A stretch of DNA of 64,000 nucleotides from an uncultured Rhodospirillales bacterium (GTDB lineage Bacteria; Pseudomonadota; Alphaproteobacteria; Acetobacterales; Acetobacteraceae), in contig CAIQQQ010000344.1 of NCBI GenBank assembly GCA_903873995.1, forward strand, positions 22,826-86,825, read 5' to 3'. Each line of letters begins with the position of its first letter. Positions within the stretch are counted from its first letter, which is position 1. The notes under the pieces were generated by a model. That model saw only the letters and a list, made by a program, of their open reading frames with translations, was not told the origin of the DNA and did not search any database. Positions 2,635 through 63,177 of this stretch are shown in pieces. Both the position numbers and the translations under genes were made by a program.

Positions 2635-3684
2635 TCACGGGGCCCGGTTGCGAAGCGCTCTTTGCAGGTCCTGCTCGATGACAGAGAGATTGGTTTGCGC
2701 AACTTTTGTTGCTTCTGCCCGCCAATCTGTGACATCAGCGACATCCGTGGGATTTGAACGTAGCAATTCGCGCTTGATGAATGGGAAGCCTGCCTGCAGC
2801 AATTGGCGCCAAAGGTCAGAGGTCGGATTCAACGGTCGCTGCTCAACCTGGGCTGAACGGACCCGCCTCGCCTGCTCATGTCGCATCTGCTGGAGTGGAT
2901 CTGGCGACGCGATGCCCTTGTCGTTCGCCTGAACGAGAAGCCCCTGATCGACGTTTGAGACGAGAGGCGTGTAGGGCCACATGGCGGCACATCGCAGGCC
3001 CCCCTGGATCAATTTCTGTGTCAATCCGATTTCGTAGCGTCTAATGACCCAGGCCTTGCTTCCGACGGGCCGAACATTCCTCCAGAACTCAGTCCATGCA
3101 GGATGTGTCAGCGCCACCCGCCCGGCTGCCAAACAGTAGGATTGCAGATGATAGCGTGCCTGCCAGCTTTCTGTTGCACCCCAAAGATCTGCCTTTTGAA
3201 GATCGATACGATCGATCAGGCCGTCGAGTGAGTGCAGCGGGCCGTAAACGCTGTCGTTCAAAATGAGAACAAGGTCCGTGTTTGCTCGCGGCAGTCCGAA
3301 ATGTCGCAAGCCTTCTCGGATGGCTGAAAAATCATAACCCACATTGCGCCGGATGATGATGCCATCACAGATACTCTTGAGACGCTCCAGGGACTCGGGA
3401 ACCAACCTGCCGGAGTTGGAGACGAACAAGACCGACATGCCAGTGTCACGCAAGGCATTTAGGTATTGAAAGACGTAAGGCCTGACCACTCCACGGGCAT
3501 CAAAATGGACGAAGAGCACCACGCCGATGTCCAGATCGGTTGGTTTTTCCGGCCACTGGTAGACGGTCTGATCGCTACGGCGTATAAAGCTAATCAGATA
3601 TGCGAGTTGCGCGAAGGTTATCCAGTTTGCCGCGACCAGGCACCGTAGCGCAACGGCCTGAAGCCGTTTCATAATCTGTGCCAT
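2635..3684 (-). CDS. Rhamnan-synthesis-protein-F-like glycosyltransferase
   Basis: About 349 aa. 'VLFVHFDARG ... ILNDSVYGP' resembles the RgpF family motif. The ATG at 3684 shares one nt with the upstream TGA; an alternative TTG is at 3687. Confidence 0.6.
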   Translation of the reverse strand: MAQIMKRLQAVALRCLVAANWITFAQLAYLISFIRRSDQTVYQWPEKPTDLDIGVVLFVHFDARGVVRPYVFQYLNALRDTGMSVLFVSNSGRLVPESLERLKSICDGIIIRRNVGYDFSAIREGLRHFGLPRANTDLVLILNDSVYGPLHSLDGLIDRIDLQKADLWGATESWQARYHLQSYCLAAGRVALTHPAWTEFWRNVRPVGSKAWVIRRYEIGLTQKLIQGGLRCAAMWPYTPLVSNVDQGLLVQANDKGIASPDPLQQMRHEQARRVRSAQVEQRPLNPTSDLWRQLLQAGFPFIKRELLRSNPTDVADVTDWRAEATKVAQTNLSVIEQDLQRALRNRAP

Positions 3685-5507: not shown

Positions 5508-7207
5508 GTGAAAGACAAATGCCCGGAATGACCTTCGGCCAACTCGGGGACACGGGCCAACAGAGCATCGTTCAGTTCATGGCGACGTTCCCACAAGTCC
5601 TTATACCATGACGCCCGATCACGAATCTGCTGGCTCATCATGCGATGATTTAAGACATATTGTTGTGCTGCTTCAGCCATGCGCCTGGTGTGCTCCGGCA
5701 ATGCCAGCATCGCTAACAGGCGGCGCCGCAGGTCCTCAGGGCTTTGGAAGACGATGCCGTTGATCCCATCAGCAACGATGTTCCCGTAGACAACCGGGCT
5801 GGCCAACGCAGCGACGCGATGTGAAGCTGCTTCGAGAAACTTCAAATCTGACTTGCAGCGGTTGAATGGAGTATCGGAAAGCGGCATGAATGAGATCTCG
5901 CATCGAGCCAATATCTCTTTATATGTTTCGTAGTCACAAAGAGGTGTAAACGTTTTATGCGGTGTCTTGAGGCCATCAAAAAGCCCTTCATCATGAATTA
6001 TTTCAAAGTGCAGATGAGAGCCAGCAGCCTCGGCAACGCTGTTGAGCGAATCCAAATATTCTGGCCATTCGCTTTCACGGTTAAGGCCTCCGAAAAACAG
6101 GCTCATCCGATCGGGGTTTATAAAGTTCTGGGGATCGGGCATCCGCGGAATGGCGTTTGCGAAGACCCGTATCTCGGGGTTTTCGCGAGATAGCACTTCG
6201 GCAAGGGCTGGCGTACTGGTCTGAATTGCATGGACGGCACGGAAGTTTTGGATATCAGAGCGCTGCAAAACCGGTATGAAATCAGGATGGTCGTCAAATT
6301 CGCACACGATGACGTAGCCTAAACTGATAAGCTGTCGAATAGGTAACAGTCCATCATCACCTTGGAGAAGTGGGCGATGAAAAATAAATATCTTTGGACT
6401 ATTGCGTTCGAGATCAGGTATCTCAGAAGACTGAGTAACCATCGCAAACATATCCGGCAAAGTCGCCAGGGCATCCATAGGATCTGATACTCGAACCTGG
6501 CTCACTCCGCCGACAGGAGAGAGGATCGTCGAAATGACGTTCGTCCTCAAAATTAGGTTAGAAGTCGCTCGCCAGACATGCTGAATTGGCGACGCTCTTC
6601 GTTGATACTCTGCAGGATCGATGTCAAGGGCTGAGAGTGCAGGCGCAATCCGCTGGATGAAGCCGAGGCAGGCGTCAGCATCAAAAACGCGCCCCTTTAC
6701 GTCAATGGCTTGAAGCCCAGCCTCGCGAATCGCGCGAAGCGTCGTATCAAATGTGAACCAGCGTAGATGTGTCCGATCAAACAGACCTGTAGGTTCATAA
6801 TCCCATCCTCCCGTCAGTAATCTCGACGCAAAACTCCAATGTTCCAAATTAGGCATACATATCAAAATCACGCCTCGCTCACTTAATTTATCGGCAAGAA
6901 ATTTCAAAATATCCCACGGGTTTTGTAGGTGCTCTAGGACATCCCCCAATATTATACAATCAAATTTCGAAAGCTCGGAATTCGACTTTAAATCCTCAAT
7001 AGCACCATGTATGACTTTATCTATCCTAAGTTTGGCAATTATAGCAGCCTCATCGTCTTGTTCAACTCCAACATATAATGCTCTGGGATTACGTCGTTTA
7101 TATTCCATGCCGGTGGCTGCGGCACCACATCCGACATCGAGAATCAAACGAGCGTCGAGCGGGATACGATTTAGAAGATCAGGATTGAGGGCATCCGGGT
7201 AACGCAT
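5504..7207 (-). CDS. Fusion protein: N-terminal SAM methyltransferase plus C-terminal GT-B-like glycosyltransferase
   Basis: 567 aa. 'ILDVGCGAAATG' and 'GDVLEHLQNP' mark the methyltransferase part. The C-terminal half ('KSDLKFLEAASHRVAALASPVVYG...INGIVF') resembles a GT1/GT4 C-domain. The gene is markedly AT-rich. Confidence 0.6.
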   Translation of the reverse strand: MRYPDALNPDLLNRIPLDARLILDVGCGAAATGMEYKRRNPRALYVGVEQDDEAAIIAKLRIDKVIHGAIEDLKSNSELSKFDCIILGDVLEHLQNPWDILKFLADKLSERGVILICMPNLEHWSFASRLLTGGWDYEPTGLFDRTHLRWFTFDTTLRAIREAGLQAIDVKGRVFDADACLGFIQRIAPALSALDIDPAEYQRRASPIQHVWRATSNLILRTNVISTILSPVGGVSQVRVSDPMDALATLPDMFAMVTQSSEIPDLERNSPKIFIFHRPLLQGDDGLLPIRQLISLGYVIVCEFDDHPDFIPVLQRSDIQNFRAVHAIQTSTPALAEVLSRENPEIRVFANAIPRMPDPQNFINPDRMSLFFGGLNRESEWPEYLDSLNSVAEAAGSHLHFEIIHDEGLFDGLKTPHKTFTPLCDYETYKEILARCEISFMPLSDTPFNRCKSDLKFLEAASHRVAALASPVVYGNIVADGINGIVFQSPEDLRRRLLAMLALPEHTRRMAEAAQQYVLNHRMMSQQIRDRASWYKDLWERRHELNDALLARVPELAEGHSGHLSFT

Positions 7208-7882: not shown

Positions 7883-9283
7883 TCAAGCCCTCGAAGTTGA
7901 GTCGGTTGCTAGAGCCTGCTGCAACAACAGAAAGCTGTTTTCGATATCAGTCTGCTCGCCACGGGTCTGGCGCAGGATCTCTTCGATCCGTGGTGCGGTT
8001 CTGACCGCTTCGTCGACCTCAGGATCGGCCCCCGGACGGTAAGCCCCTAAGCGGATCATATCAGCCATATCGTTATAGGTCGCGAGCAAGGATCGGGCGC
8101 GCCTTGTGAGGGAGTTCTCTTCTGGGCTGTTGCAGCCGGGAACCGATCTCGACAACGACCGCAGAATGTCGATCGCGGGATAGCGCCCGGCCTCGCCAAT
8201 GCGACGATCCAGGATCACGTGGCCGTCTAGAATGCCACGGACGGCATCCGTAACAGGCTCATTATGATCGTCCCCTTCCACAAGGACCGTGAAGAGGCCC
8301 GTAATATATCCAACAGAGCCGGACACCATCGGGCCGGGGCCTGCCCGCTCTAAAAGACGCGGCAGTTCCGCGAACACACTCGGTGGATAGCCGCGTGTTG
8401 CCGGTGGTTCACCGGCTGACAGACCTATTTCGCGCAAGGCAAGACAAAACCGTGTGACACTGTCCATCAGCAGCAGAACGCTCTTTCCCTGATCGCGGAA
8501 ATGCTCGGCAATGGCCATCGCCGCATATGCTGCCTCACGCCGCATAAGCGGCGGCTGGTCCGATGTCGCGATGACCACCACAGAGCGGGCCAGCCCCTCG
8601 GCGCCAAGATCGTCTTCCAGGAACTCCCGCACTTCACGACCGCGCTCCCCGACCAAGGCAAGAACCACCACATCGCACAGAGTGTGGCGCGCAAGCATTG
8701 CCATCAGTGTCGATTTTCCCACGCCGGATCCGGCAAACAGGCCTAGACGTTGCCCCTTTCGGCACGTCGTAAACATATTCATCGCCTTCACTCCTAGATC
8801 CAATCGCGGGCCCAGGCGTGCGCGTGTTGTGGCCTCCGGCGGCGATCCCCGGATGAGCCGAGGCGACGTCCCGCGCGGCAGAGCACCCCGTCCATCGAGT
8901 GGCCGAGCAAGCGGATCGACAACGCGGCCGATCCACCGATTGTCGATCATAAAGCAATGCCCCGACTGCTGGCTGGTAGAGCCATTCAAACGGGTCGGCG
9001 CTGGCATTTGCGCGCGGCTCCCCAGACCGAGGCCGTTGGTGTCTGCGAACGTCATGGTCTGCGCGCGATTGGCCCGAAAGCCGACAATCTCTGCTGCAAC
9101 GCTGTGCCCGGATCTGCCGACTAGATTAATTCGATCGCCGATCGAGGCATGATCAGCCAACCCCCCCACCTCGACCATCAGGCTCGAGACAGCGCTGATC
9201 CGCCCGTCCAGCCTGGCCACCGCAAGCGAACCGATGGCCGACGACGCCGAGTTCAACCGCTGCGCCACCGAATGATCCCGCAC
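7883..9283 (-). CDS. fliI: Flagellum-specific type III secretion ATPase FliI
   Basis: 466 aa. Walker A 'GSGVGKST', 'LLLMDSVTRF' and an F1-ATPase-like fold pattern. Confidence 0.95.
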   Translation of the reverse strand: MRDHSVAQRLNSASSAIGSLAVARLDGRISAVSSLMVEVGGLADHASIGDRINLVGRSGHSVAAEIVGFRANRAQTMTFADTNGLGLGSRAQMPAPTRLNGSTSQQSGHCFMIDNRWIGRVVDPLARPLDGRGALPRGTSPRLIRGSPPEATTRARLGPRLDLGVKAMNMFTTCRKGQRLGLFAGSGVGKSTLMAMLARHTLCDVVVLALVGERGREVREFLEDDLGAEGLARSVVVIATSDQPPLMRREAAYAAMAIAEHFRDQGKSVLLLMDSVTRFCLALREIGLSAGEPPATRGYPPSVFAELPRLLERAGPGPMVSGSVGYITGLFTVLVEGDDHNEPVTDAVRGILDGHVILDRRIGEAGRYPAIDILRSLSRSVPGCNSPEENSLTRRARSLLATYNDMADMIRLGAYRPGADPEVDEAVRTAPRIEEILRQTRGEQTDIENSFLLLQQALATDSTSRA

Positions 9284-9444
9284 TTAAAAAATCCCTGTTT
9301 TTGTGTCGCAGTATTAAAAATAATACGGGCTGCGACCAACCGTATACTCTCGATGTCTCAATGCACGCAAATGATGAAAAAAGGATGGATCCGACGTGCG
9401 TCATTTGGTAGGGTTCAACTCGAAGTAGCGGATCGGAGGGCCCA
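9284..9444. promoter_or_regulatory. AT-rich divergent fliI/ctrA promoter region containing inverted repeat GTATTA-AAAA-TAATAC (9311-9326)
   Basis: 161-bp intergenic region, visibly AT-rich compared with its flanks. The 6-bp inverted repeat was read directly. No transcription-factor site was recognised with confidence. Confidence 0.3.
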
Positions 9445-10179
9445 ATGCGCGTATTACTCGTTGAGGACGACCTGACTGCAGCACGGGGAATCTCCCTGAT
9501 GCTGAAATCCGGCGGCGCTGTCGTCGACGAAGCGGACACGGGTGAAGAGGCCCTAGAACTCGCCAGGCACTACGATTACGATATCGTCGTGCTCGACCTA
9601 ATGCTCCCGGATATGGAGGGCTACGACGTTGTCCGCCGGATGCGGGCTGCACGCATTGAGGTCCCGGTCCTCATATTGTCCGGTCTGTCCCGTCCGCAGG
9701 CGAAGGTCAAAGGCCTTGGTGCCGGGGCGGACGATTTCATCACGAAGCCTTTCGACAAGGCAGAACTTCTTGCGCGAATGCAGGCGATCGTCCGGCGGAG
9801 TAAAGGCTTCAGCCAACCGAGTTTGCGCGTGGGTAATCTGCGCCTCAATCTTGATAGCCGGGAGGTTTACGCCAGCGACAAACCGGTTCATCTGACCGGC
9901 AAGGAATACGCGATCCTCGAGTTGCTGGTGCTTAGGAAGGGCATGGTTCTCACCAAAGAGGCCTTCTTGAACCATCTCTACGGCGGCATGGATGAGCCGG
10001 AGATGAAGATCATCGATGTCTTCATCTGTAAATTGCGGAAAAAACTGCAAAACGCTGGTGTTGAGAATTTGATCGGGACGGTTTGGGGACGAGGGTATAT
10101 GCTTCGGGAACCGAATACACCGATCGAACATGCAGACGCACCTGTTCCTGGTGTGGCCCGAGCCTTAACGGCGGCTTAG
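9445..10179 (+). CDS. ctrA: Cell-cycle response regulator CtrA (OmpR family)
   Basis: 244 aa. 'MRVLLVEDD...YDIVVLDLMLPDMEGYDV' receiver domain, followed by 'GKEYAILELL...KIIDVFICKLRKKL' winged helix characteristic of CtrA. Confidence 0.9.
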   Translation: MRVLLVEDDLTAARGISLMLKSGGAVVDEADTGEEALELARHYDYDIVVLDLMLPDMEGYDVVRRMRAARIEVPVLILSGLSRPQAKVKGLGAGADDFITKPFDKAELLARMQAIVRRSKGFSQPSLRVGNLRLNLDSREVYASDKPVHLTGKEYAILELLVLRKGMVLTKEAFLNHLYGGMDEPEMKIIDVFICKLRKKLQNAGVENLIGTVWGRGYMLREPNTPIEHADAPVPGVARALTAA

Positions 10180-10215
10180 TCCCCCCCGGCGGCATTGTCA
10201 TTCAAGCTGGTTGTA

Positions 10216-11016
10216 TCAGGCCGTGAACTGCTCGGTGATGATGCGCTCGGACAAGCCTCGGTCGGGGTTGAAGAGGATGCGAGCGTGAACCGTTCGGTCC
10301 TCACAGATCGCGACCGACACGACGTCTCTAACCTCCTTGAAGTCGGCAACCGCGGCGACTGGTCGTTTTTCGTGCTCCAATGCCTCAAACAGCACATCAG
10401 CACTGCTTGGCAGCAGAGCCCCTCGCCAACGGCGGGGCCGGAAAGCGCTGATTGGCGTCAAGGGTAGAAGATTGGCGGAGAGCGGGACGATCGGCCCGTG
10501 CGCGCTCAGGTTGTAGGCGGTTGAGCCAGCGGGCGTTGAGACCAGGACGCCGTCGCAGATCAATTCCTCCAATCTTACCCGCCCGTCCACTGAAATGCGG
10601 ATCTTGGCCGCCTGTCGAAGCTCCCGAAGGAGCGACACCTCGTTAAACGCCAATGCCTCCTCGACACGTCCGGTACTCGTGACGGCACTCATACGCAACG
10701 GGTTCAAGATCGCCGGCTGCGCGGCGGCGAGTCGCGTAATTAGGTTCTCCTCATTGTACTCATTCATCAGGAACCCAACGGAACCACAATTCATTCCGTA
10801 GACAGGAATGTTGCGTCCAAGAAGGCGATGCAATGTCTCAAGCATGAAACCATCGCCGCCGAGCGCCACAATCACTTCAGCATCTCCGAGCGGACATTCG
10901 CCGTGCAAACCTACGAGCCGATTGCGGCTCTCCTGCGCTAAGGGTGTCGGCGAAGCCTCAAAGGCAATTAGGGGCGATCTGATCAAAAGCCGTCTCCGTC
11001 TCTGTGGCGAGGCCAT
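10216..11016 (-). CDS. nadK: NAD(+) kinase
   Basis: 266 aa. '[10 protein letters not shown]' plus the '[17 protein letters not shown]' NAD-kinase signature. Confidence 0.85.
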
Positions 11017-11060
11017 CCGACACGGCCCGGGGACCGCTCATTGCGACTGAACCACGGCTC

Positions 11061-11142
11061 TGCCCGCCGCCGGACTCGAACCGGCACGCCCAAAGGACTG
11101 CGGATTTTAAGTCCGCTGCGTCTACCATTCCGCCAGGCGGGC
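11061..11142 (-). tRNA. tRNA-Leu (anticodon UAA), class II, CCA not encoded
   Basis: Hand-folded. Acceptor GCCCGCC/GGCGGGC, D-arm GCG..CGC, anticodon stem GCGGA/TCCGC with loop CUUAAAA, long variable arm, and T-arm GCCGG-TTCGAGT-CCGGC. Confidence 0.85.
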
Positions 11143-11167
11143 CTGCGTTGGAAACTAGACCGCACGC

Positions 11168-12079
11168 TTACGCCGATTGAACGCTCCGCGCGATATCCAG
11201 CGCACGGCGGAGCAAGGTTTCATTTGCTTCCGGCGTGCGGAACGCGCTGTGGGCGGAAAGTGTGACGTTGTCCAGACCCTGCAGCGGATGCGGGTGGGGC
11301 AGCGGCTCCTCATCGAACACATCAAGCGCCGCATGACCGATTCGGCCTGATTTCAACGCTACGAGCAACGCGCCTTCATCCAGAATTGCGCCTCGGGCCG
11401 TGTTCACAAGGATGGCGCCGGAGCGCAACAGCGCGAAATGCTCAGTCGATAGAAAGCCACGGGTCTCATCGTTGAGTAAAAGATGGACGCTGACCACGTC
11501 GCTTTGTGCCAAGACGAGTTCAAGGGGCAGAAACTCTACTCCCGGTGCCACCTTCGGTGTACGGTTCCACGCGATCACGCGCATTCCGGACCCCGACGCA
11601 ATCCGGGCCACCTCAGCAGCGATGCCGCCGTATCCGATGAGGCCAATGGTCTTACCCGTGAGCTGGACGCCCTCGCTGCGAATCCAGGCGCCATGGCGCA
11701 TGCTCCTGTCCATGATGGCAAGCCCGCGGGCGGCGGCCCACATGAGCGCGATGGTGTGCTCGGCAACCGCGATGTCGCCATATCCTTTGATGATATGAAC
11801 TGATATCCCAATTTCTTGGAGCTCCTCGGGATTCATGTAACTTCGTGCACCCGTGCCCAGGAAGATCACATGCTTCAGCTGCGGACAGAGCGCCAAAGCC
11901 GAGGTCGGCAGATAGGAATGATCGTCCAGCATGAAGTCGTACCCTGCCAGCATCCTCGGCAAATCAGTGGCGGAGACCAAATCCTGCTCGTTCACATCAA
12001 CCTGCGGGTCCTCGGCGGTCTTGACCTGATGAAAGACAGTCGTCAGGACAGGATTGGCATCAAGAAACAGACCCTTCAT
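11168..12079 (-). CDS. D-isomer-specific 2-hydroxyacid dehydrogenase family protein
   Basis: NAD-binding 'GLIGYGGIA' and the catalytic region 'NTARG...LDV...EP'. The start is placed at the internal ATG (MKGLFLD), because the 110-aa N-terminal extension of the 413-aa ORF looks non-coding. Confidence 0.8.
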   Translation of the reverse strand: MKGLFLDANPVLTTVFHQVKTAEDPQVDVNEQDLVSATDLPRMLAGYDFMLDDHSYLPTSALALCPQLKHVIFLGTGARSYMNPEELQEIGISVHIIKGYGDIAVAEHTIALMWAAARGLAIMDRSMRHGAWIRSEGVQLTGKTIGLIGYGGIAAEVARIASGSGMRVIAWNRTPKVAPGVEFLPLELVLAQSDVVSVHLLLNDETRGFLSTEHFALLRSGAILVNTARGAILDEGALLVALKSGRIGHAALDVFDEEPLPHPHPLQGLDNVTLSAHSAFRTPEANETLLRRALDIARSVQSA

Positions 12080-12160
12080 GCAACCGCCCTCTTGCTGCCA
12101 TCGGTTGGTCCTAGATGCCGCGATCGGGCTCCCAAAGACATCCGTCATTTGACGTGACGC

Positions 12161-12982
12161 TTGCACGGCCCGCAAGGTCTCACCATGCGAACTGCGCTGA
12201 TCCTTGTTTTTGCTCTCGCCTGGTGTGCATCTGCCCGCGCTCAGAAGCCTCCTGCTCTCGCTCCAGGTGAGACAACCGACAGCAAACCGCCGATCCTGAG
12301 AAGCCCAACATTGCCGGCATTGGGGAACCCAGCGGCCCCCGAGGGTCGGGCTGCGGCAAGCGGCACCGGGTTCATGATTGGCGAGGGGCGCCTCCTGACC
12401 AACAATCATGTTGTGGAAGGATGCAGCCGCCTGGCGGCCCGCAACGCATTAGGCAGACGGGTCGTCGGACAGGTTGTTGCAACGGATCCCAGAAGGGACC
12501 TCGCTTTGGTCGCGGTTCCGGTTGGCTTCGGCCCGACTTTGGTTTTTCGTGACAGCCCACCGGTGCGGCGCGGAGATACCGTGGTCACATACGGTTTCCC
12601 CCTGTCCGGCGTGCTGTCCTCGGGACCGACGTTGACGACAGGAGACGTCAGCGCGCTGGCTGGGTTGCGTGACAACCCGCTGCATTTCCAGATTTCCGCG
12701 CCTGTACAGCCCGGCAATTCCGGGGGGCCGCTGCTGGATGCACAAGGTCACGTCGTGGGCGTGATTGTGTCGAAACTCAACGCGGCCCGCATCGCGCAGA
12801 TGACGGGTGGCGATATTCCCCAGAATGTGAATTTCGCAATCAAGGGGCCTGAGGTCGCCAGCTTTCTCTCCGCCTACAATAATCCCGCCCTCCATCAACC
12901 AAGTACAGGTATCGATCTGAAGCCAGCCGAGATCGGTGAGATTGCTAATCCGTCTGTGATGCTCTTGCAGTGCTACCGCTAA
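12161..12982 (+). CDS. Secreted trypsin-like (S1) serine peptidase
   Basis: Signal-like 'MRTALILVFALAWCASARA'. Catalytic context 'TNNHVV', 'DLALV' and 'GNSGGPL'. Confidence 0.75.
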   Translation: MHGPQGLTMRTALILVFALAWCASARAQKPPALAPGETTDSKPPILRSPTLPALGNPAAPEGRAAASGTGFMIGEGRLLTNNHVVEGCSRLAARNALGRRVVGQVVATDPRRDLALVAVPVGFGPTLVFRDSPPVRRGDTVVTYGFPLSGVLSSGPTLTTGDVSALAGLRDNPLHFQISAPVQPGNSGGPLLDAQGHVVGVIVSKLNAARIAQMTGGDIPQNVNFAIKGPEVASFLSAYNNPALHQPSTGIDLKPAEIGEIANPSVMLLQCYR

Positions 12983-13004
12983 CATTGCCGTGCCGACCGT
13001 TCAC

Positions 13005-13712
13005 TCACGCGCGTGCACTCCGCGCCAGCAGGATCAGCTCGCGCCGCACATCCTCGGGTTTTGAGACCGGCGCCGTCCAGGTGACCCGCCTGACTGCCTC
13101 GCCCAACATCAGATCGCACCCATCAACGTCGCACGTCACCATCCGCCAGGCGCCTGGCTCGCCGGCCAGAAGGGACAACGTGTCCGGGTGATCCTCATTA
13201 CAATGCGTGCAGATCTCGCTTTCAGCGGACAAAAGGGCCGTGACGGCGTCTGGATCCGGCGTCAGATCTGCCTGGCGTAGCCGAGCCGCTCGCGCAAAAC
13301 CCCCGACAAACATCGCGCCGAGTGGCTTCACGCGCCATAGAGCGAAGTCGCCGAAGTCGGCATAGAGCGCACCGTATGGGTGAATGGCCAGCCAGCGAGC
13401 TTTCAACGCTGGATCGGCATCGATCTCAGCAACCCCGGTGATCGACACCCGCGGCGTAGTTTGCGGGTTGGCGCCTTCCGGAACGCCCAAAACCATCACC
13501 GAACACCGCGGATTACGCCGGAGTTGGCGCGTGTGGGCCGATAGGTCGGATAACAGCAGGAGCAATGACAGATCCGGAGCACAGGCTGGAGTCGCCAGTG
13601 AGACGAGCGGCTGCCCCTCCTCTGCGGTTGCCAGATAGCCGGTGCGTGCCGCCCGCAAAAGCATCCTGGTCTGCCATGCTGGGGTCGGTCCATCATCCGG
13701 TGCGACTGCCAT
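13005..13712 (-). CDS. Pyridoxamine-5'-phosphate-oxidase-like / HugZ-type (DUF2470-containing) protein
   Basis: FMN-binding split-barrel-like N-terminal half, then a C-terminal 'CNEDHPDTL' region typical of DUF2470. The start is placed at MAVAPDD and is uncertain. Confidence 0.55.
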
Positions 13713-42218: not shown

Positions 42219-43499
42219 ATGTCCGATCCCACAACAACACGTAGCCGCATTTCCTCTATCTTTGGAGGATCAGTAGGAAATCTAATTGAATGGTATGATT
42301 TCTATATATATAATTTTCTTGCTCTATATTTCGCAAAGGCGTTCTTTCCAAATTCCGATCCGACGGCACAGATGCTCAACACCTTCGGCATCTATGCGAT
42401 CGGCTTCCTGATCCGCCCGGTCGGCGGCTGGATCCTCGGTGCCTATGCCGACCGCGCCGGCCGAAGGGCGTCACTCAGCCTGTCCGTGACGCTGATGTGC
42501 CTGGGTTCGCTGATCATCGCATTGGCGCCAACATTCAAGGATGCTGGCGTCATCGCACCCTTGTTGCTGCTGGGTGCGCGCCTGCTGCAGGGCATCTCTT
42601 TGGGTGGCGAATACGGTGCGTCCGCCACCTATCTCTCGGAGATCGCCGGCGAGAAGAACCGTGGCTTTTACAGCAGCTTTCAATACGTGACGCTTATCGG
42701 CGGGCAGGTGCTGGGCAGTCTGACACTGCTGATCATGCAGCTTGCCTACACCCCTGCCGAGCTTGAGGCCGGAGGCTGGCGCATTCCATTCTATATCGGT
42801 GCAGCCTGCGCATTGTTCGGCCTCTACCTGCGGCGCGGCCTGGTGGAGAGCGCCGAGTTCAAGGCTGTGCAGAAGCTGCCGCGCGGCAACCCGTTCACGG
42901 AGCTGCTGAAGCACCCCCGCGCCGTGCTGCTGGTGTTCGGCCTCACAATGGGCGGGACCACGGCGTTCTACACCTACACAACCTACATGCCGACCTTCCT
43001 CGTCAACACCGTGAAGCTGACGCGCGACCAGGCCACCCAGATCTCGTTCATCACGCTGCTGATCTATGCGTGTCTGCAGCCCGTGTTTGGCGCCCTGTCC
43101 GATCGGATCGGCCGGCGCCCGGTGCTGAGCTTCTTTGCGATCGGCGGGACGCTCGGGACCGTGCCCATGCTGACCTTGCTGTCCCAGACGCATGATTATC
43201 TGACTGCGTTGCTGCTCACGCTGTCCGCCCTGGTTGTGGTGTCCGGCTACACGGCGATCAATGCGGTGGTGAAGGCCGAGCTGTTCCCGGCTAATGTCCG
43301 GGCCTTGGGCGTCGGCTTTCCATATGCGGTCGCTGTGTCGATCTTCGGCGGCACGGCTCCCTATATCGCGCTGAGCTTCAAAGATGCGGGACTGGAGAGT
43401 GGATTTTATTGGTATGTCACAGCTCTGATCGCAATCTCTGGCGTGGTTTACGCCCGGATGCGTGAGACCAAGGTTGCGTCTCTCATGGCGCGTGACTGA
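42219..43499 (+). CDS. MFS transporter, metabolite:H+ symporter (KgtP/ProP-like) family
   Basis: 426 aa. 'GNLIEWYDFYIY' and 'GAYADRAGRR' are typical of this family. Twelve predicted transmembrane segments. Confidence 0.8.
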   Translation: MSDPTTTRSRISSIFGGSVGNLIEWYDFYIYNFLALYFAKAFFPNSDPTAQMLNTFGIYAIGFLIRPVGGWILGAYADRAGRRASLSLSVTLMCLGSLIIALAPTFKDAGVIAPLLLLGARLLQGISLGGEYGASATYLSEIAGEKNRGFYSSFQYVTLIGGQVLGSLTLLIMQLAYTPAELEAGGWRIPFYIGAACALFGLYLRRGLVESAEFKAVQKLPRGNPFTELLKHPRAVLLVFGLTMGGTTAFYTYTTYMPTFLVNTVKLTRDQATQISFITLLIYACLQPVFGALSDRIGRRPVLSFFAIGGTLGTVPMLTLLSQTHDYLTALLLTLSALVVVSGYTAINAVVKAELFPANVRALGVGFPYAVAVSIFGGTAPYIALSFKDAGLESGFYWYVTALIAISGVVYARMRETKVASLMARD

Positions 43500-44751: not shown

Positions 44752-45987
44752 TTGGTGATGCGCGTGAAGGATGTGAAGAAAGTTGTGCTGGCCTATTCTG
44801 GTGGGCTGGACACCAGCGTGATCCTGCGCTGGCTGCAGACAACCTATGACTGCGAGGTGGTGACGTTCACGGCCGATCTCGGCCAGGGCGAGGAGCTTGA
44901 GCCCGCACGACGCAAGGCTGAAATGTTTGGCGTGAAACAAATCTTCGTCGACGACTTGCGCGAGACCTTCGTGCGGGAGTTCTGCTTCCCGATGTTCCGC
45001 GCCAACGCTCTCTATGAAGGCCTCTATCTGCTCGGCACATCTATCGCCCGTCCACTGATCGCGCAGCGCCAGATCGAGATTGCCGAAATGGTGGGTGCTG
45101 ACGCTGTGGCCCACGGCGCGACGGGCAAAGGCAATGACCAGGTGCGCTTCGAGCTTGCCTATTACGCGTTGAAGCCAGACGTCAAGGTTATCGCCCCCTG
45201 GCGCGAGTGGGATCTCACCAGCCGCACCCGGTTGCTGGAATTCGCCGAGACCCATCAGATCCCAATCACCAAGGACAAGCGCGGCGAGGCACCGTTCTCG
45301 GTCGATGCGAACCTCCTGCACTCCTCGAGCGAGGGCAAGGTCGTGGAGGATCCGGGCATGGAGGCCGATGAAATGGTCTACCAGCGTACGATCCGCCCCG
45401 AGGACGCGCCAGACGTCGCCACTTACATCACGATCGACTTCGTCCACGGCGATCCCGTCGCGATCAACGGCGAGGCCCTGACACCAGCGGCATTCCTGAC
45501 CAGACTCAACGAGCTCGGCAAGTTGAACGGCATCGGCCGGCTCGACCTGGTGGAGAACCGCTTCGTTGGCATGAAGTCCCGCGGGATCTACGAGACCCCG
45601 GGCGGTACGATCTGGCTGGCAGCGCATCGCGGTATAGAAAGCATCACGCTCGATCGCGAGGCCGGCCACCTCAAGGACAGCCTGATGCCGAAATACGCCG
45701 AGCTGATCTATAACGGCTTCTGGTTCAGCCCGGAGCGTCGCATGCTCCAGGCGGCGATCGATGCTAGTCAGCAATCCGTCACAGGCCGCGTGCGGATAAA
45801 GCTGTATAAGGGCAATGTCTCGGTCGTCGGGCGTGAAAGCCCCAACACGCTTCACTCCATGAAAGTCGTGACGTTCGAGGACGATCAGGGCGCGTATGAC
45901 CAGTTCGACGCGCAGGGATTCATCAAGCTGAACGCGCTGCGCCTGCGCCTTGGCGCCATGGCTGGCCGCAAGGGAGGGAGCCTGTAA
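44752..45987 (+). CDS. argG: Argininosuccinate synthase
   Basis: '[13 protein letters not shown]', '[15 protein letters not shown]'. 411 aa. Confidence 0.93.
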
Positions 45988-53639: not shown

Positions 53640-54674
53640 TCAGGCCGAACGTATCTGTGCGATCAGCTCGGCGACATGCTCTGGCGGCGTCTGTGGTAGA
53701 ATGCCATGACCGAGATTAAAGATATGCGGCCGACCACGCATCGCCTGCAGCAACATGTCAGCCTCCTCCCGCAAGGCGGCTCCGCCTGCTACCAACGCAA
53801 GGGGATCCAGGTTGCCCTGTATCGCCATATCGGCCGGGATCATACCGGCCGCCAGGGACGGCTCGGCCGACGTGTCCAGCGCCACAGCATTCACGCCGGT
53901 CTGGTGCGCATATTCACCAAGCATCATTCCAGACAGGCGGGGAAACCCGATGATCGGCGTGTTCGGGAACCGAGCTTTGAGCTGGGCGGCAATTCGGGCG
54001 GCCGGTGCGATGACGTGGGTTCGAAACAACCGCGGCGATAAGATCCCGTCCCAGCTGCCGAACAGCATCGCCACTTCAGCGCCTGCCAGGATCTGCGCCG
54101 AAAGATAGGTAATGGTGGCCACCGTGATCTTTTCCATCAAATCGGCGAACACTTTTGGTTGGCCATGCGCCATCGCACGCACATGAGCAAACTCCTTCGA
54201 GCCACCACCCTCGATCATGTAGCATGCCACCGTGAACGGACTGCCGGCAAAGCCGATCAACGTGGTGTCTGGATGATGCTCGATCAGCGCCGCACGGACC
54301 TGCCTCACTGTCTCAAGGATCGGCCGGATCTCTCCCCGCACCCGGCCAACATCGAGTGCATCGACGCCGGCCTGGTCACGGATGGGCGGCAGGATCGGAC
54401 CTTCGCCAGCTTCAAACGCCAGGTCCTGGCCGAGGGCCCAGGGCAGCACGAGAATGTCGCTGAACAGGATCGCAGCATCCATGCCGAATCGCCGGACCGG
54501 TTGCAGCGTCACTTCGCAGGCTTTCTCCGGATTGGTCGCAAGATCCATGAATCCGGTGGTGGTGGCGCGAACAGCCCGATACTCCGGCAGGAAGCGTCCA
54601 GCCTGGCGCATCAGCCACACCGGCGGCGGCCAGACCGCTTCGCCCGTCAGCACCTGCATCACCTTCTTGGCCAT
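53640..54674 (-). CDS. hemE: Uroporphyrinogen decarboxylase
   Basis: 'PPVWLMRQAGRFLPEYR' UroD signature 1. 344 aa. Confidence 0.93.
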   Translation of the reverse strand: MAKKVMQVLTGEAVWPPPVWLMRQAGRFLPEYRAVRATTTGFMDLATNPEKACEVTLQPVRRFGMDAAILFSDILVLPWALGQDLAFEAGEGPILPPIRDQAGVDALDVGRVRGEIRPILETVRQVRAALIEHHPDTTLIGFAGSPFTVACYMIEGGGSKEFAHVRAMAHGQPKVFADLMEKITVATITYLSAQILAGAEVAMLFGSWDGILSPRLFRTHVIAPAARIAAQLKARFPNTPIIGFPRLSGMMLGEYAHQTGVNAVALDTSAEPSLAAGMIPADMAIQGNLDPLALVAGGAALREEADMLLQAMRGRPHIFNLGHGILPQTPPEHVAELIAQIRSA

Positions 54675-54695
54675 CGCGAGTCCCGTCCTTCGGTG

Positions 54696-54726
54696 CTCTT
54701 ATCTAAGATAAGATTAAAAGAGTCTT
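54696..54726. promoter_or_regulatory. AT-rich segment (possible DNA-unwinding element) with palindrome CTTATCT-A-AGATAAG (54698-54712)
   Basis: 8 G/C in 31 nt by hand count. Flanked or overlapped by GAGTC at 54678-54682 and 54720-54724. Confidence 0.4.
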
Positions 54727-54747
54727 GCAGGAGTAACAGAGGAACCC

Positions 54748-54756
54748 TGTGGATAG
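54748..54756 (-). promoter_or_regulatory. DnaA-box-like 9-mer CTATCCACA (8/9 to TTATCCACA)
   Basis: The plus strand reads TGTGGATAG. Confidence 0.55.
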
Positions 54757-54791
54757 CGGGGACCAAGCGTCACGTCCGGTTGACGCCCTGT

Positions 54792-54800
54792 TTGTCCACA
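54792..54800 (+). promoter_or_regulatory. DnaA-box-like 9-mer TTGTCCACA (8/9)
   Basis: Read directly. Confidence 0.55.
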
Positions 54801-54906
54801 TCAGGCCCGTTGTGCAAGTCCCTGACCCTGCGTTTGAACAGGCCAATGTCCCCATCCCGGAGTAGGGCCGGCAATGTTTCATCCCGATAACGGCAAAGTC
54901 ACATCG

Positions 54907-54915
54907 TTATCCCCG
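54907..54915 (+). promoter_or_regulatory. Weak DnaA-box-like 9-mer TTATCCCCG (7/9)
   Basis: Read directly. Part of the TTATCCCCGCT direct repeat. Confidence 0.35.
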
Positions 54916-54956
54916 CTCACCCGATGGCCGATAAACTGGTGACGTGAAATTCGCAC

Positions 54957-54965
54957 TTATCCCCG
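54957..54965 (+). promoter_or_regulatory. Weak DnaA-box-like 9-mer TTATCCCCG (7/9)
   Basis: Read directly. Second copy, 50 bp after the first. Confidence 0.35.
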
Positions 54966-54979
54966 CTATCATCAAAGAC

Positions 54980-55837
54980 ATGTCGAACCGCATCAATCTC
55001 CACCTCGTGTCGGACGCTACCGGCGAAACGCTGAACTCGATCGCACGGGCGACGGTGTCGCAGTTCGAACATGCCAGCATCGTCTACCACCGCTGGTCGC
55101 TGATCCGGACGCGGTTTCAGCTGCATCGTGTGCTCGAAGGTATCGAGGCCGAGCCAGGCCCTGTTTTGTCGACGTTGGTCGAGCGGGGTCTGCGAACCGA
55201 ACTGGAGACGGCCTGTGAGAGGTTCGGGGTGGCGATCGTTTCGGTGCTCGATCCGGTGATGGCGATGTTTCAGGAACAGCTCGGCGAGAAGGCCATTTCA
55301 CGTCCTGGCCGGCAATACGTTCTGGATGCTGACTATTTCCGACGCATCGACGCCATGCACTACGTGCTGGCCCATGATGACGGACAGGCCCAAGCAGGTA
55401 TCGCCGAGGCGGATGTGGTGCTGATCGGGGTATCGAGGAGTTCGAAGACCCCCACGTCATTCTATCTCGCCAATCGCGGCATCAAGGCGGCCAACATCCC
55501 GTTGGTGCCAGGCACGCAAGATCCGCCAGGATTGGAGAACCCAACCTGCCCCGTCGTCGGGCTGACCTTGGATTCAGATGCGCTGATCGAGATCCGCCGG
55601 CATCGCCTTCGGATGATCGGCGCCGGCCCGACGGCCGGGGTGGTGCGACAGGACACGGGTGTGTATGTCGACCACGAGGCCGTCAAAGCCGAACTGCTCT
55701 GGGCGCGCAGGCTCTGTACGCGCAGAGGGTGGCCGGTGATTGACGTGACACGGCGGTCAATTGAGGAGACCGCCGCCACGGTGATCACCCTGATGGAATC
55801 CTGGCATGATCGCCGCCGTAAGGCTGAGACGCCTTGA
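54980..55837 (+). CDS. PpsR-like kinase/phosphorylase (DUF299; RP001 homologue)
   Basis: '[14 protein letters not shown]' and P-loop-like '[11 protein letters not shown]'. The start is at ATG 54980, because the GTG 54944 extension would cover the repeat motifs. Confidence 0.85.
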
Positions 55838-56457
55838 TGCTTCAGGATCCCGCGACCCGTCTGATCCTTGCCAGCCAGTCACCATCGCGCCGGGCCTTGA
55901 TGGCATCGACGGGGTTGGCATTCGAGACGGTGCCTGCGTGGATCGATGAAGCCGCGATCAAGGCAAGTGCCCAGGCCGAAGGTTGGCAGCCGGATGAATG
56001 CGCGGTTCATCTCGCGGAGTTGAAGGCAGCGCGTGTCGCACGCACGCATCCGGATGCCCTTGTCATTGGTGCTGACCAATTGCTGGTGTGTAATGGCGTA
56101 TGGTTCGAAAAGCCACAGACCGTCTCAGAGGCGCGGTCTCACCTCACCCTTCTGAGTGGCCAAGTTCATGATCTCGTGACCGCAATCGTGTGTTTTCAGG
56201 GCGGACATCGGGTCTGGCACGATATCGCAACGCCCAGGCTCCGGATGCGACAGCTCTCAGAAGCTCTGATCGACTGGTATATTGCGTCCGAGGGTGATGC
56301 CGTGACCACGACCGTCGGGGCCTATCGCATCGAAGGGCTGGGGCTTCATCTGTTTGACCAAATCACCGGCGCGCACTCAGCCATCTTAGGGATGCAAATG
56401 TTGCCCTTGCTGGGTTATCTCCGCCAAGCCCGGATTCTGGAGCCAGGACGACGATGA
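55837..56457 (+). CDS. maf: Maf-like nucleoside-triphosphate pyrophosphatase
   Basis: 'LILASQSPSRRALM' and 'GAYRIEGLG'. The ATG shares one nt with the upstream TGA. Confidence 0.85.
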   Translation: MLQDPATRLILASQSPSRRALMASTGLAFETVPAWIDEAAIKASAQAEGWQPDECAVHLAELKAARVARTHPDALVIGADQLLVCNGVWFEKPQTVSEARSHLTLLSGQVHDLVTAIVCFQGGHRVWHDIATPRLRMRQLSEALIDWYIASEGDAVTTTVGAYRIEGLGLHLFDQITGAHSAILGMQMLPLLGYLRQARILEPGRR

Positions 56458-61207: not shown

Positions 61208-61987
61208 CTAGGGGCGGTTTCGCTCAGCCGCCAGACGGGCCTCGGCAATCGTCACATAGGACGGGTCTATGTCGATCCCGATGCCCCGAGCACCCTCGCG
61301 TGCCGCCGCCACCATCGTCGTTCCCGTGCCCATGAACGGATCGAGCACCAAAGCATTCTCCCGCCCGTGCAGCCGGATGCACCAGCGCGGCAGATCGACG
61401 GGGAATGTGCCGGGATGGTTGAACTTTTCGGTGCGGCTTTGCACCGTGTCATAGGGAATGAACCAGGTGTTGCCGCGGCAGCGCAGATCGGCCGGGTGTC
61501 CCCGCCGCGTGATATTGCTTTTGTCCTGATACGGCACGCCGATCGCCAGCCGGTCCAGCGTCACATCACCAGCGCGTGTAAAGTGAAAGATCGGCTCGTG
61601 CGCCTGGTGCAGGAACCGCCGGCTCGACACCGGCTTGAAATGCCCCGATGTGGCCGCCCCGATCGAGACCGACTTGATCCAGGTGATGTGGTTCTGCAGC
61701 ACGAACAGCGACCTCAACCGCACCACCAGTTCGAATGGCAACCATGGCGCGCGCGGGCTGCCGGACACGTTGAGAAAGAACGATCCATCTGGCCGGAGTA
61801 CCCGGCGCAGCTCGGTGGCCACCGACACCATCCAGTCGAGATAGGACGCCTCTCCCCGGCTGTCTTCGTAGCTGTTATAGGCGAGGCCGATGTTGTAGGG
61901 CGGTGACGTCACCACGATGTCTACGGATGCGTCGTCCAGCGTTGGAAGCACTTCCAGGCAATCGCCGCTGATCAGCCGACCCGTCAC
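61208..61987 (-). CDS. Beta-class N4/N6 DNA methyltransferase (SPPY type)
   Basis: 'DIVVTSPPYN' (motif IV) precedes 'LDPFMGTGTT' (motif I). The start is proposed at GTG 61987 overlapping the mltA TGA (GTGA). The longest ORF (to 62173) would overlap mltA by 190 nt. Confidence 0.8.
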   Translation of the reverse strand: MTGRLISGDCLEVLPTLDDASVDIVVTSPPYNIGLAYNSYEDSRGEASYLDWMVSVATELRRVLRPDGSFFLNVSGSPRAPWLPFELVVRLRSLFVLQNHITWIKSVSIGAATSGHFKPVSSRRFLHQAHEPIFHFTRAGDVTLDRLAIGVPYQDKSNITRRGHPADLRCRGNTWFIPYDTVQSRTEKFNHPGTFPVDLPRWCIRLHGRENALVLDPFMGTGTTMVAAAREGARGIGIDIDPSYVTIAEARLAAERNRP

Positions 61988-63177
61988 TCCTTGGGCAGCA
62001 GAACGAAATACCGGCCCTGCTGGCGCATCCGCCCGGCCCTGTTCTCCGCTTCTGCCCCCCAGCCCCAGAACACATCCGCCCGCACGGCGCCATGGATCGC
62101 GCCGCCGGTGTCCTGCGCGAGCATCAGCCGCTGGAGCTTCGACCCGTCCACCGGATCCGTCGTATCGAGCCACACCGGCGCTCCGAGCGGGATCACCGAG
62201 CGATCCACAGCCAGCGATCGTCCCGGCGCCAATGGTACGGAGAGCGTGCCCGGCGGGCCCTGGTCGGCCTTCACGCCAATGACTTCACGAAAAAATACGT
62301 AGGACGGATTCTTTGCCATCACGTCGCCAGCCTCGGCAGGATGAGCCCGCAGCCAGGCGCTGATCGACTGCATGGAGACCTGCTCAAGCGTCATTTCCCC
62401 GCGATCCACCAACACGCGGCCGATCGGCAGATAGGTCCTGCCATTCTGTCCGGCATAGGAAACCCGAGCGACCTTGCCATCTGGCAAGCGGATTCGGCCG
62501 GCTCCTTGAATGTGGAGAAAGAACGCATCGATCGGGTCAGCAAGCCAGATCAGCTCCAGCCGTTTGCCGGCAAGGGCACCGTGTTCAATCTCGGCGCGAT
62601 CATAATACGGCACGACATCGCCCGATGGCAGACGCCGACCCACCCGCAGCGCCGCATTCTCGCCGGCGAACGTACCCGCCTCCACCGGCACCAGATCGGC
62701 CGGTCGGGAGAGCAGCGACACCTTGTAGGCGGAGCTCGGACTGCGTGATCCCCTGATCTCCGGTTCGTAATACCCGGTGAACAATCCCATGGCGTCCTGC
62801 CCGGCCGTGACGGCGTAGGGCACGAGCCAGGCCTCGAAGAACCGGCGCGCCGCCGCGTCGTCCGTCCCGGGCACCGCACGGGCCGCATCGCAGGCCGGTT
62901 TCCATGACGCGGCCTGCCCACCCAGGGCCTCAGCCGCAGGCATACCGCCCAGCTTCGCCTCGCCGTTGAGCCTGGCATCGGCCAGATGCGCGCAGCCCGC
63001 CAGGAACGGACCGATTGCCTTGGATGTGCTGTCGGCGCTCCAACCTGGCAGCTTGTCGTAAGTGGTCCGGGTCATAACCGGCGTGCCGTCGGCCACCGGC
63101 GCCACCTTCGGCGGGATCGGCGCACAGGAGGCAACGAAAGCGGCCAGCGCAAGCGCGGCCCTCGGGGCATGCCTCAC
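61984..63177 (-). CDS. mltA: Membrane-bound lytic murein transglycosylase A
   Basis: Lipobox 'AAFVASC'. 'GYYEP', 'FFLHIQGAGRIRLPDG' and 'AQDTGGAI' MltA motifs. GTG 63177 overlaps the upstream TGA (GTGA). Confidence 0.85.
   Translation of the reverse strand: MRHAPRAALALAAFVASCAPIPPKVAPVADGTPVMTRTTYDKLPGWSADSTSKAIGPFLAGCAHLADARLNGEAKLGGMPAAEALGGQAASWKPACDAARAVPGTDDAAARRFFEAWLVPYAVTAGQDAMGLFTGYYEPEIRGSRSPSSAYKVSLLSRPADLVPVEAGTFAGENAALRVGRRLPSGDVVPYYDRAEIEHGALAGKRLELIWLADPIDAFFLHIQGAGRIRLPDGKVARVSYAGQNGRTYLPIGRVLVDRGEMTLEQVSMQSISAWLRAHPAEAGDVMAKNPSYVFFREVIGVKADQGPPGTLSVPLAPGRSLAVDRSVIPLGAPVWLDTTDPVDGSKLQRLMLAQDTGGAIHGAVRADVFWGWGAEAENRAGRMRQQGRYFVLLPKE

Follow-up and report, generated by a model that had tools for sequence, protein, structure and literature searches.

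Gene Setting of the Candidate Origin

The DNA analysed here, a 64-kb stretch (64,000 nucleotides, referred to throughout as the window) from an uncultured member of the Acetobacteraceae, raises the question of where its chromosome begins to replicate, and whether that place is the short gap between hemE and a divergent DUF299 gene. A previous examination of the letters (the sequence-only reading) had concluded that the gap is the oriC of this chromosome. Family models agree with the setting that it described, revealing a 305-bp non-coding gap (54675-54979) with hemE on the minus strand at one side and a DUF299/PpsR-like gene followed by maf on the plus strand at the other. The gap and its boundary genes are arranged as follows.

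53640-54674, minus strand: hemE (uroporphyrinogen decarboxylase), left boundary gene (TIGR01464, 1.6e-113)
54675-54979, no strand: candidate oriC, non-coding gap, the unique DnaA-box maximum of the window (at most 2 mismatches, per 305 bp)
54980-55837, plus strand: DUF299/PpsR-like kinase-phosphorylase (RP001, COG1806 homologue), right boundary gene (NF003742, 8.9e-90)
55834-56457, plus strand: maf, second gene of the rightward pair (TIGR00172, NF002690)

The open reading frame of the DUF299 gene begins at 54944, with the NF003742 match starting at residue 14 of this longer frame, and its likely ATG is located at 54980; the length of 305 bp given for the gap follows from that ATG and not from the start of the frame. 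Homologues of the DUF299 protein are 285-290 amino acids long, and the gene is presumably the one that carries the name yqfL in Bacillus subtilis. On the other side of the gap, ahcY, rho, a GNAT acetyltransferase gene, hemJ, a HAD hydrolase gene, hemH and hemE all lie on the minus strand between 47.8 and 54.7 kb. The gene calls thus match the leftward block, and the two rightward genes beyond the gap, of the sequence-only reading. No Rfam match was found within the gap (54675-54979). The source genome has a GC content of 60%.

The closest relatives of the DUF299 protein are found in the Acetobacteraceae/Rhodospirillales, with identities of up to 89% in species-representative genomes and of 93-94% in metagenomes. 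They are mostly uncultured, the cultured ones including Limobrevibacterium gyesilva and Acidisphaera. Complete or near-complete sequences with the locus are OZ251994.1 (at 1.40 Mb, skew -/-), OZ241182.1, OZ255629.1, ERZ25039454 contig_3253 (3.28 Mb) and contig1 of L. gyesilva. Of 80 related loci, 78 have hemE and the DUF299 gene side by side and divergently oriented, and the gap between them is 282-331 bp long in most relatives.

Candidate DnaA Boxes and Their Conservation

The gap contains two matches to the DnaA box at the 8/9 level, two at the 7/9 level and one W-box. All of these, including the TCCCCA hexamer, lie where the sequence-only reading had put them, and together with the alignment of relatives they define five candidate boxes.

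54746-54767, minus strand: box 1, CTATCCACA at 54748-54756 in a strongly conserved block (8/9 DnaA-box match and alignment)
54792-54800, plus strand: box 2, TTGTCCACA (8/9 match; column conservation 8-9 out of 10)
54846-54854, plus strand: box 3, ATGTCCCCA, which includes TCCCCA at 54849-54854 (motif scan and alignment of relatives)
54907-54915, plus strand: box 4, TTATCCCCG (7/9 match; alignment)
54957-54972, plus strand: box 5, TTATCCCCG followed by GCTATCAT (7/9 match; conservation 9 out of 10, the top block of the gap)

The 8/9 level is reached by only two boxes of the gap. The form TT(G/C)TCCACA is among the DnaA boxes listed in PMC4285127, with TTGTCCACA being the form typical of high-GC bacteria, and TCCCCA, found inside box 3, is the Caulobacter W-box consensus, a weak DnaA site (PMC4285127).

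Sites that deviate from the DnaA box at no more than one position show no enrichment over the 64 kb as a whole (7 found, 5.2 expected), and two of the seven are located inside the gap. When up to two mismatches are allowed, the gap holds four boxes and is the sole 305-bp stretch of the 64 kb to reach that number (Poisson P = 0.001); at least four DnaA boxes are treated as indicative of an origin in PMC1914354. Five copies of the core TRTCCMC are present in the gap, where 0.09 would be expected. This core was defined from the gap itself and afterwards tested on the relatives, where its density is 9.95 per kb in 77 related gaps and 0.30 per kb in 1.17 Mb of flanking sequence, a 33-fold difference.

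When 78 gaps are aligned, the blocks that stand out as conserved coincide exactly with the box-like sites. The consensus of the relatives at box 1 is GGTACCCCGTTATCCACAGG, which holds a perfect TTATCCACA; box 2 appears as TTTGTCCACA, box 3 has the consensus TTATCCCCA, box 4 is represented by a nearly invariant GTTATCCCCGC and box 5, the strongest block, by GGTTATCCCCGCTATCCTC. Measured from the DUF299 start, the boxes of the relatives are found at about -231 (inverted, minus strand) and at -187, -133, -72 and -22 (direct, plus strand), with box 4 at -72 and box 5 at -22 in most relatives and box 1 at about -231 in many. The gap of one related locus (L028) is without TTATCC-type boxes and carries seven copies of GAGTCCTCC(A/C)C, each of which overlaps a GANTC site. 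We read this as a probable concerted replacement of the whole box array, as would be expected for sites that are read by one protein.

AT-rich Tract, CtrA Sites, and Promoters

The 31-bp stretch of 26% GC and the two GANTC sites noted previously are present on the hemE side of the gap, at the following positions.

54696-54726, no strand: AT-rich tract, a 31-mer of 26% GC, candidate unwinding element and/or hemE promoter or leader (composition and stability scan)
54720-54724, no strand: GANTC (GAGTC) at the edge of the AT-rich tract (motif scan)
54678-54682, no strand: GANTC (GAGTC), second site (motif scan)

The tract is situated 22-52 bp upstream of the hemE start; when the 40-bp stretches of the window are ranked by stability, it is part of the third least stable. 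The same placement is found in the relatives: of 66 related gaps, 65 have their most AT-rich 31-mer no more than 80 bp from the start of hemE, with a median GC content of 0.29 versus 0.68 for the locus. The motif AAAGAGTCTTGA, which contains the GANTC at 54720, is recurrent in close relatives. Enrichment of GANTC in the gap is not clear, with four strand-hits against 1.08 expected from the density of the window, both very small numbers.

No perfect CtrA site (TTAA-N7-TTAA) occurs in the whole 64-kb window. A single 7-of-8 match is found at 54703-54717, in the AT-rich tract, and CtrA-like sites are present in only 9 of 78 related gaps, at no conserved position. ctrA itself is encoded at 9445-10179, 45 kb from the gap. 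This agrees with PMC4468827, where most other alphaproteobacterial origins are described as showing no CtrA sites.

At the opposite end of the gap, a promoter-like element (GTGAAA-17-TATCAT, 54944-54972) stops 8 bp short of the DUF299 ATG; box 5 is located in its spacer and overlaps the -10-like hexamer. The same 305 bp has to house the promoters of both hemE and the DUF299 gene, and a promoter function may instead account for boxes 4 and 5 and for the AT-rich tract. By analogy with Cori, origin and promoter roles can be compatible within one gap.

Strand-composition Skew

A cumulative GC-skew minimum at the gap, over the whole replicon, had been put forward as a check on the origin, and within the window the result does not favour it. 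The cumulative skew declines to ~14 kb, climbs to ~52 kb, stays level as far as 60 kb and declines again thereafter, giving a weak local maximum at 52-57 kb of the 64-kb window instead of a minimum; the relatives are heterogeneous. Skew at four-fold-degenerate sites in the window is not significant on either side of the gap (+0.019 left, -0.027 right; own gene calls). In the window, the AIMS strand-biased octamers published for A. pasteurianus are not polarised (15/14 on the left, 0/4 on the right), and AIMS counts pooled over the relatives are confounded by conserved coding motifs.

Among 38 loci with both flanks available, 4 belong to the -/+ class, 11 to -/- and 3 to +/+, with the remainder partial or without significant skew. 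On the left flank, significant skew is negative in 25 of these loci and positive in 3; on the right flank the numbers are 13 and 9, respectively. In about a third (13/38), one flank is significantly skewed with the wrong sign. Moderate-amplitude switches that coincide with the gap were observed in L020, L074, L009 (a cultured isolate), L035 and L039; a full-amplitude -/+ switch was present in no locus examined. A regression model fitted to 60 loci, in which locus offsets and gene orientation served as covariates, revealed a skew step at the gap of +0.082 (CI 0.050-0.118) and no coding-strand bias, the step being largest with the boundary placed at the gap. The steps at pseudo-boundaries are asymmetric (0.007 at -5 kb versus 0.061 at +5 kb), and consequently the mean step may in part be a block effect of the rho-hemE operon and not of replication. 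The locus offsets exceed the step (SD 0.147, range -0.41 to +0.42).

Strong negative skew on both flanks is found in L043 (-0.38/-0.37), L056, L036, L068 and L069, and strong positive skew on both flanks in L060 (+0.46/+0.34), L006, L001 (+0.34/+0.54) and L033, with the boxes intact in all of the same-sign loci that were inspected. Of the relatives with long contigs, the closest is L084, whose DUF299 is 91% identical and whose genes from rho to secB are in the same order; its skew is -0.19/-0.24. L001 shares this gene order and has the opposite sign. TA skew co-varies with GC skew (r = 0.41), and the substitutions between L084 and L001 are directional (C>G 622 versus G>C 135). On the basis of this co-variation and of the directional differences between relatives, the strong uniform skew looks real and replication-related. 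Artefact was rejected as its source, given that the assemblies come from several projects, that the substitutions are directional and that TA and GC skew co-vary; unidirectional replication was also rejected, as relatives with the same box architecture differ in the sign of their skew. A long-standing origin cannot sit within uniform skew, and so such skew across the gap is evidence either against an origin there or for origin use that varies between lineages. Skew also varies in patches of a few genes, within single contigs too (L086, L088 and L106), which makes local skew a weak guide in this family.

Gene Direction and the gid-par Cluster

Outward gene direction with par and gid genes nearby is a usual correlate of an origin and not a strict requirement. 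The layout expected on that basis, with divergent genes and with parABS and gidAB close by and reading outward, is not seen in the window. The proportion of non-core coding sequence directed away from the gap is 36% on the left and 10% on the right in the window, and 40% and 43%, respectively, in the relatives. None of dnaA, dnaN, parAB and gidAB occurs in the 64-kb window, where the search for parS returned just one site, with two mismatches and inside argG. No dif-like site, sought as a test of a location near the terminus, was found there. A perfect parS site is present at a distance of 1.8 kb from the gap in L028 and of 5.5 kb in L011, which, in these two relatives at least, keeps the locus within the chromosomal region near the origin.

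The gid-par cluster is found ~5 kb to the right of the gap, on the DUF299 side, in L011 and L119, where it reads toward the gap. In a close relative (L002/L086, with L086 reached from the contig L002 via kup), parB is ~26 kb to the right and is likewise transcribed toward the gap. The related genomes L116 and L117, as well as more distant alphaproteobacteria, have the canonical order rho-mnmE-mnmG-rsmG-parA-parB, reading away from the gap. With the canonical order found elsewhere and the toward-gap order in close relatives, the cluster has been relocated in the lineage of the window.

Search for Another Origin Site

A second cluster of DnaA boxes was not found in ~100 kb of examined neighbourhood, with none in the 64-kb window outside the gap and none from ~+4 to +26 kb in L086. 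Upstream of mnmE in L088, L104, L106 and L113 there is also no cluster, and the box density is that of the background (about 1.5 per kb). A metagenome scan with a ParB fragment provided 38 long gid-par (parB) loci, in which the sole cluster of at least three good boxes is the hemE/DUF299 gap of L119. A motif search of 84 loci for dnaA, parB, mnmG and mnmE identified only mnmG, in L011, and dnaA was located within 10 kb of the gap in none of the 84. In the published genome of A. pasteurianus 386B, oriC is placed 'near dnaA' (gene 66 there), with the flanking genes unnamed (PMC3751514), and no experimentally mapped oriC from the Acetobacteraceae was found in the literature searched. One recent paper that reports oriC and dif 50 kb apart was set aside here.

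Interpretation of the Gap as a Probable Origin

Taken together, the gene setting, the near-constant length of the gap, the positioned and enriched boxes, the AT-rich tract and the failure to find a rival cluster suggest that the gap is probably, although by no means certainly, the chromosomal replication origin, orthologous to Cori of Caulobacter crescentus, a Cori-type oriC without CtrA sites. The concerted change in L028, the proximity of parS in two relatives, the mean skew step and the precedents of Cori and Azospirillum point the same way. Counting against an origin are the lack of a skew switch in the window, the relatives with same-sign skew, the non-divergent genes, the gid-par cluster that reads toward the gap, the absence of par, gid and dnaA genes, and a total of only two 8/9 boxes. 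The identification of the gap as oriC in the sequence-only reading is upheld by the gene setting in 78 of 80 loci and by boxes and an AT-rich tract conserved in position, and is not upheld by skew, by gene direction or by the 64 kb around it, which are devoid of parS (the degenerate site in argG apart), parAB, gidAB and dnaA.

The sites observed, with their arrangement and conservation, suggest how DnaA binding, unwinding and origin firing would proceed. DnaA-ATP would occupy the two stronger TCCACA-type boxes (box 1, inverted, and box 2, direct) and would then fill the three weaker TCCCC-type boxes, all of which are directed toward the DUF299 gene. The resulting oligomer could open the AT-rich tract beside hemE, where the replisome would be loaded. 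As the divergent promoters of hemE and the DUF299 gene share the same 305 bp, box 5 would probably also give DnaA control of DUF299 transcription.

The main alternative, which we consider less likely, is that the gap is a conserved array of DnaA boxes inherited from an ancestral Cori that is not, or is no longer, an active origin in this lineage. DnaA would then regulate the hemE and DUF299 promoters and/or be titrated by the array, with replication starting elsewhere, for example near dnaA or beyond mnmE. Many relatives with retained boxes, L084 among them, have strong replication-type skew of one sign on both sides of the gap, as such an array would allow; that local skew is patchy even within one contig weakens this point. 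The lack of a full-amplitude switch in any locus fits the same explanation, whereas the moderate switches exactly at the gap in L020, L074 and L009, and the retained adjacency of hemE and the DUF299 gene, are not accounted for by replication that merely passes through. Gene orientation that does not diverge from the gap, and the gid-par cluster that points toward it in L002/L086, L011 and L119, can also be cited in favour, but the canonical rho-mnmE-gidA-gidB-parA-parB order, reading outward, persists in L116 and L117. The position of box 5, in the spacer of the promoter-like element just before the DUF299 ATG, would suit a regulatory site, and yet five positioned boxes and a positioned AT-rich tract exceed what a promoter usually needs. 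Finally, the oriC 'near dnaA' of A. pasteurianus 386B (PMC3751514) offers a precedent for a start elsewhere, against which no alternative DnaA-box cluster was present in any sequence examined.

A related and rather improbable proposition is that part of the Acetobacteraceae clade, possibly with the source genome among its members, has kept the Cori-type array while replication forks pass through it, the origin having moved or being used in some lineages only. If this were true, the old origin would survive as a DnaA-dependent regulatory or titration site, and close genomes with identical local gene order would differ in where this region is replicated from or in which direction.

That the gap is an ordinary divergent promoter region, in which the box-like sequences are chance matches or the sites of another regulator, is very improbable: the boxes of at most one mismatch are not enriched across the window, the TTATCCCCG repeats match the DnaA box at just 7 of 9 positions and a hemE promoter would be expected at the place of the AT-rich tract, but all five sites are conserved in position across 77 relatives and enriched 33-fold, the relatives' consensus at box 1 is a perfect TTATCCACA, TCCCCA is a documented weak DnaA site of Caulobacter (PMC4285127) and the gap is the unique maximum of box density in the window.

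Under the preferred reading, in which the gap is the origin, it would represent a delimited oriC candidate of 305 bp with a map of five boxes for the Acetobacteraceae and their acidophilic relatives, of use for setting genome coordinates, for estimating growth rates from metagenome coverage and for oriC-based vectors. It would also be a further Cori-type origin without CtrA sites in an organism that encodes CtrA. If the same-sign skew of the relatives holds on whole chromosomes, the position or usage of the origin in this group is less fixed than synteny-based prediction assumes.

Comparison with Known Systems

The datA, DARS1 and DARS2 loci of Escherichia coli are clusters of DnaA boxes that are not origins. 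They illustrate that a conserved cluster of this kind need not fire as an origin, and serve as the model for the main alternative considered above; they differ from the gap in not being syntenic with an origin and in having no conserved AT-rich tract adjacent to them, and no homology is implied.

The origins of the Rickettsiales are adjacent to hemE, being bounded by hemE and COG1806 in R. prowazekii and by hemE and COG1253 in Wolbachia (PMC1914354), in agreement with the statement of the sequence-only reading that the hemE-RP001 setting marks origins elsewhere, including Rickettsia. The gap shares with them the hemE boundary and the cluster of three to five DnaA boxes within an intergenic region of 300-600 bp (PMC1914354). 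It differs in composition, those origins being AT-rich and the gap lying in DNA of 60% GC, and in that CtrA and IHF sites were criteria for their prediction, whereas no CtrA site is conserved here.

In Azospirillum, which belongs to a related order (Rhodospirillales), oriC is predicted between yqfL and hemE (bioRxiv 10.64898/2026.09.14.751567). The two have in common the gene pair and several DnaA boxes, one of which is inverted relative to the others (bioRxiv 10.64898/2026.09.14.751567). The Azospirillum oriC is itself a DoriC/Ori-Finder prediction, and parAB is found 12 kb from it, in contrast to the gap, around which none occurs from -54 to +9 kb.

The gap would belong to an origin type that is already known and expected here by synteny. 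In C. crescentus, Cori has been mapped experimentally between hemE and duf299/CCNA_00001 (PMC6393856, PMC1914354), the RP001 homologue, as the sequence-only reading had correctly stated. The DnaA sites of Cori are two G-boxes of moderate strength (TGATCCACA) and five weak W-boxes (TCCCCA), and it also contains an AT-rich region, GANTC sites and the promoters of hemE and duf299 (PMC6393856, PMC4285127). The gap differs from it in the absence of a TTAA-N7-TTAA CtrA site, although the genome encodes ctrA, in its stronger boxes, which resemble TTATCCACA/TTGTCCACA and not the G-box TGATCCACA, and in showing no skew switch in the 64-kb window. The flanking genes and their divergent orientation, on the other hand, are identical, and both arrays mix TCCACA-type boxes with weaker TCCCC(A)-type boxes, in numbers of two and three here and of two G-boxes and five W-boxes in Cori. 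Both also enclose an AT-rich region and GANTC sites together with the promoters of the flanking genes, and in Cori, too, the AT-rich region is on the hemE side.

Strand skew across the gap and other unusual stretches of the window

Some relatives that share the local gene order have a very strong GC skew at four-fold sites (magnitude 0.2–0.5), with one sign to the left and right of the hemE|DUF299 gap alike. This sign varies between close relatives: the related loci L001 and L084 encode HemE proteins with 90% identity, yet their skews are +0.39 and −0.30, respectively.

Related loci with one-sign skew across the whole 10–20 kb locus
L001, L006, L033, L060: positive
L036, L043, L056, L068, L069, L084: negative

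Within the window, a stretch of 656 bp without a called gene (12986–13641), upstream of a gene pair whose products are a response regulator of the OmpR family and a kinase resembling ChvG, lies close to the turning point of the cumulative skew and contains no DnaA box at ≤1 mismatch. The AT-richest spot (42272–42330, 15% GC over 40 bp) is located near the start of an MFS transporter ORF (42219–43499), just downstream of the malic-enzyme gene, with no DnaA boxes nearby. The stretch at 3684–7207 (and about 2.6–9.3 kb) is low in GC, at 51–56% compared with about 61%. It codes for two large proteins with methyltransferase domains and one that is RgpF-like, and has the appearance of a glycan-synthesis island gained by acquisition. 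Within the gap itself, a small GC-rich inverted repeat, GCGTCA-N8-TGACGC, sits between the DnaA-box-like sites box 1 and box 2 at 54767–54786 and is poorly conserved in relatives.

CtrA and DNA methyltransferase genes

Genes of the window considered here
7883–9283, −, fliI
9445–10179, +, ctrA, CtrA response regulator (NF045991, 375 bits, exceeding the cut-off of that model)
61208–62173, −, N6-adenine DNA methyltransferase

The ctrA gene adjoins fliI and lies 45 kb from the gap. Despite its presence, TTAA-N7-TTAA sites are found neither in the gap nor anywhere else in the window. The methyltransferase gene lies 6 kb to the right of the gap, a place that is kept in relatives. The predicted enzyme scores 62 bits against the CcrM model, far under the cut-off of 830, a score that does not identify it as the GANTC methylase.

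The L028 gap, parS-like sites, and the gid-par cluster

The TTATCC-type boxes are absent from the gap of the related locus L028 (the 305 bp upstream of L028 10001), where seven copies of GAGTCCTCC(A/C)C are found in their place, each overlapping a GANTC site. In L028 the DUF299 gene is separated from maf by ∼1 kb of extra sequence, which includes a perfect parS, TGTTTCACGTGAAACA, at 11792–11807. A parS-like palindrome with two mismatches, TGTTTGGCGTGAAACA, is located inside argG of the window (44924–44939); by our own uniform-model estimate, the chance expectation for such sites is about 0.02.

In the lineage of the window, mnmG-rsmG-parA-parB has been relocated: the cluster now lies on the same side of the gap as DUF299 and reads toward the gap (L086, L011, and L119).

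Positions in related loci
L086 (rightward extension of the L002 contig, a close relative) 1–357: parB, ∼26 kb to the right of the L002 gap
L011 about 9150–12452: gid-par cluster
L119 3251–7239: gid-par cluster

In the related loci L116 and L117 and in distant alphaproteobacteria, the canonical order rho-mnmE-...-parB is retained, with transcription directed away from the gap.
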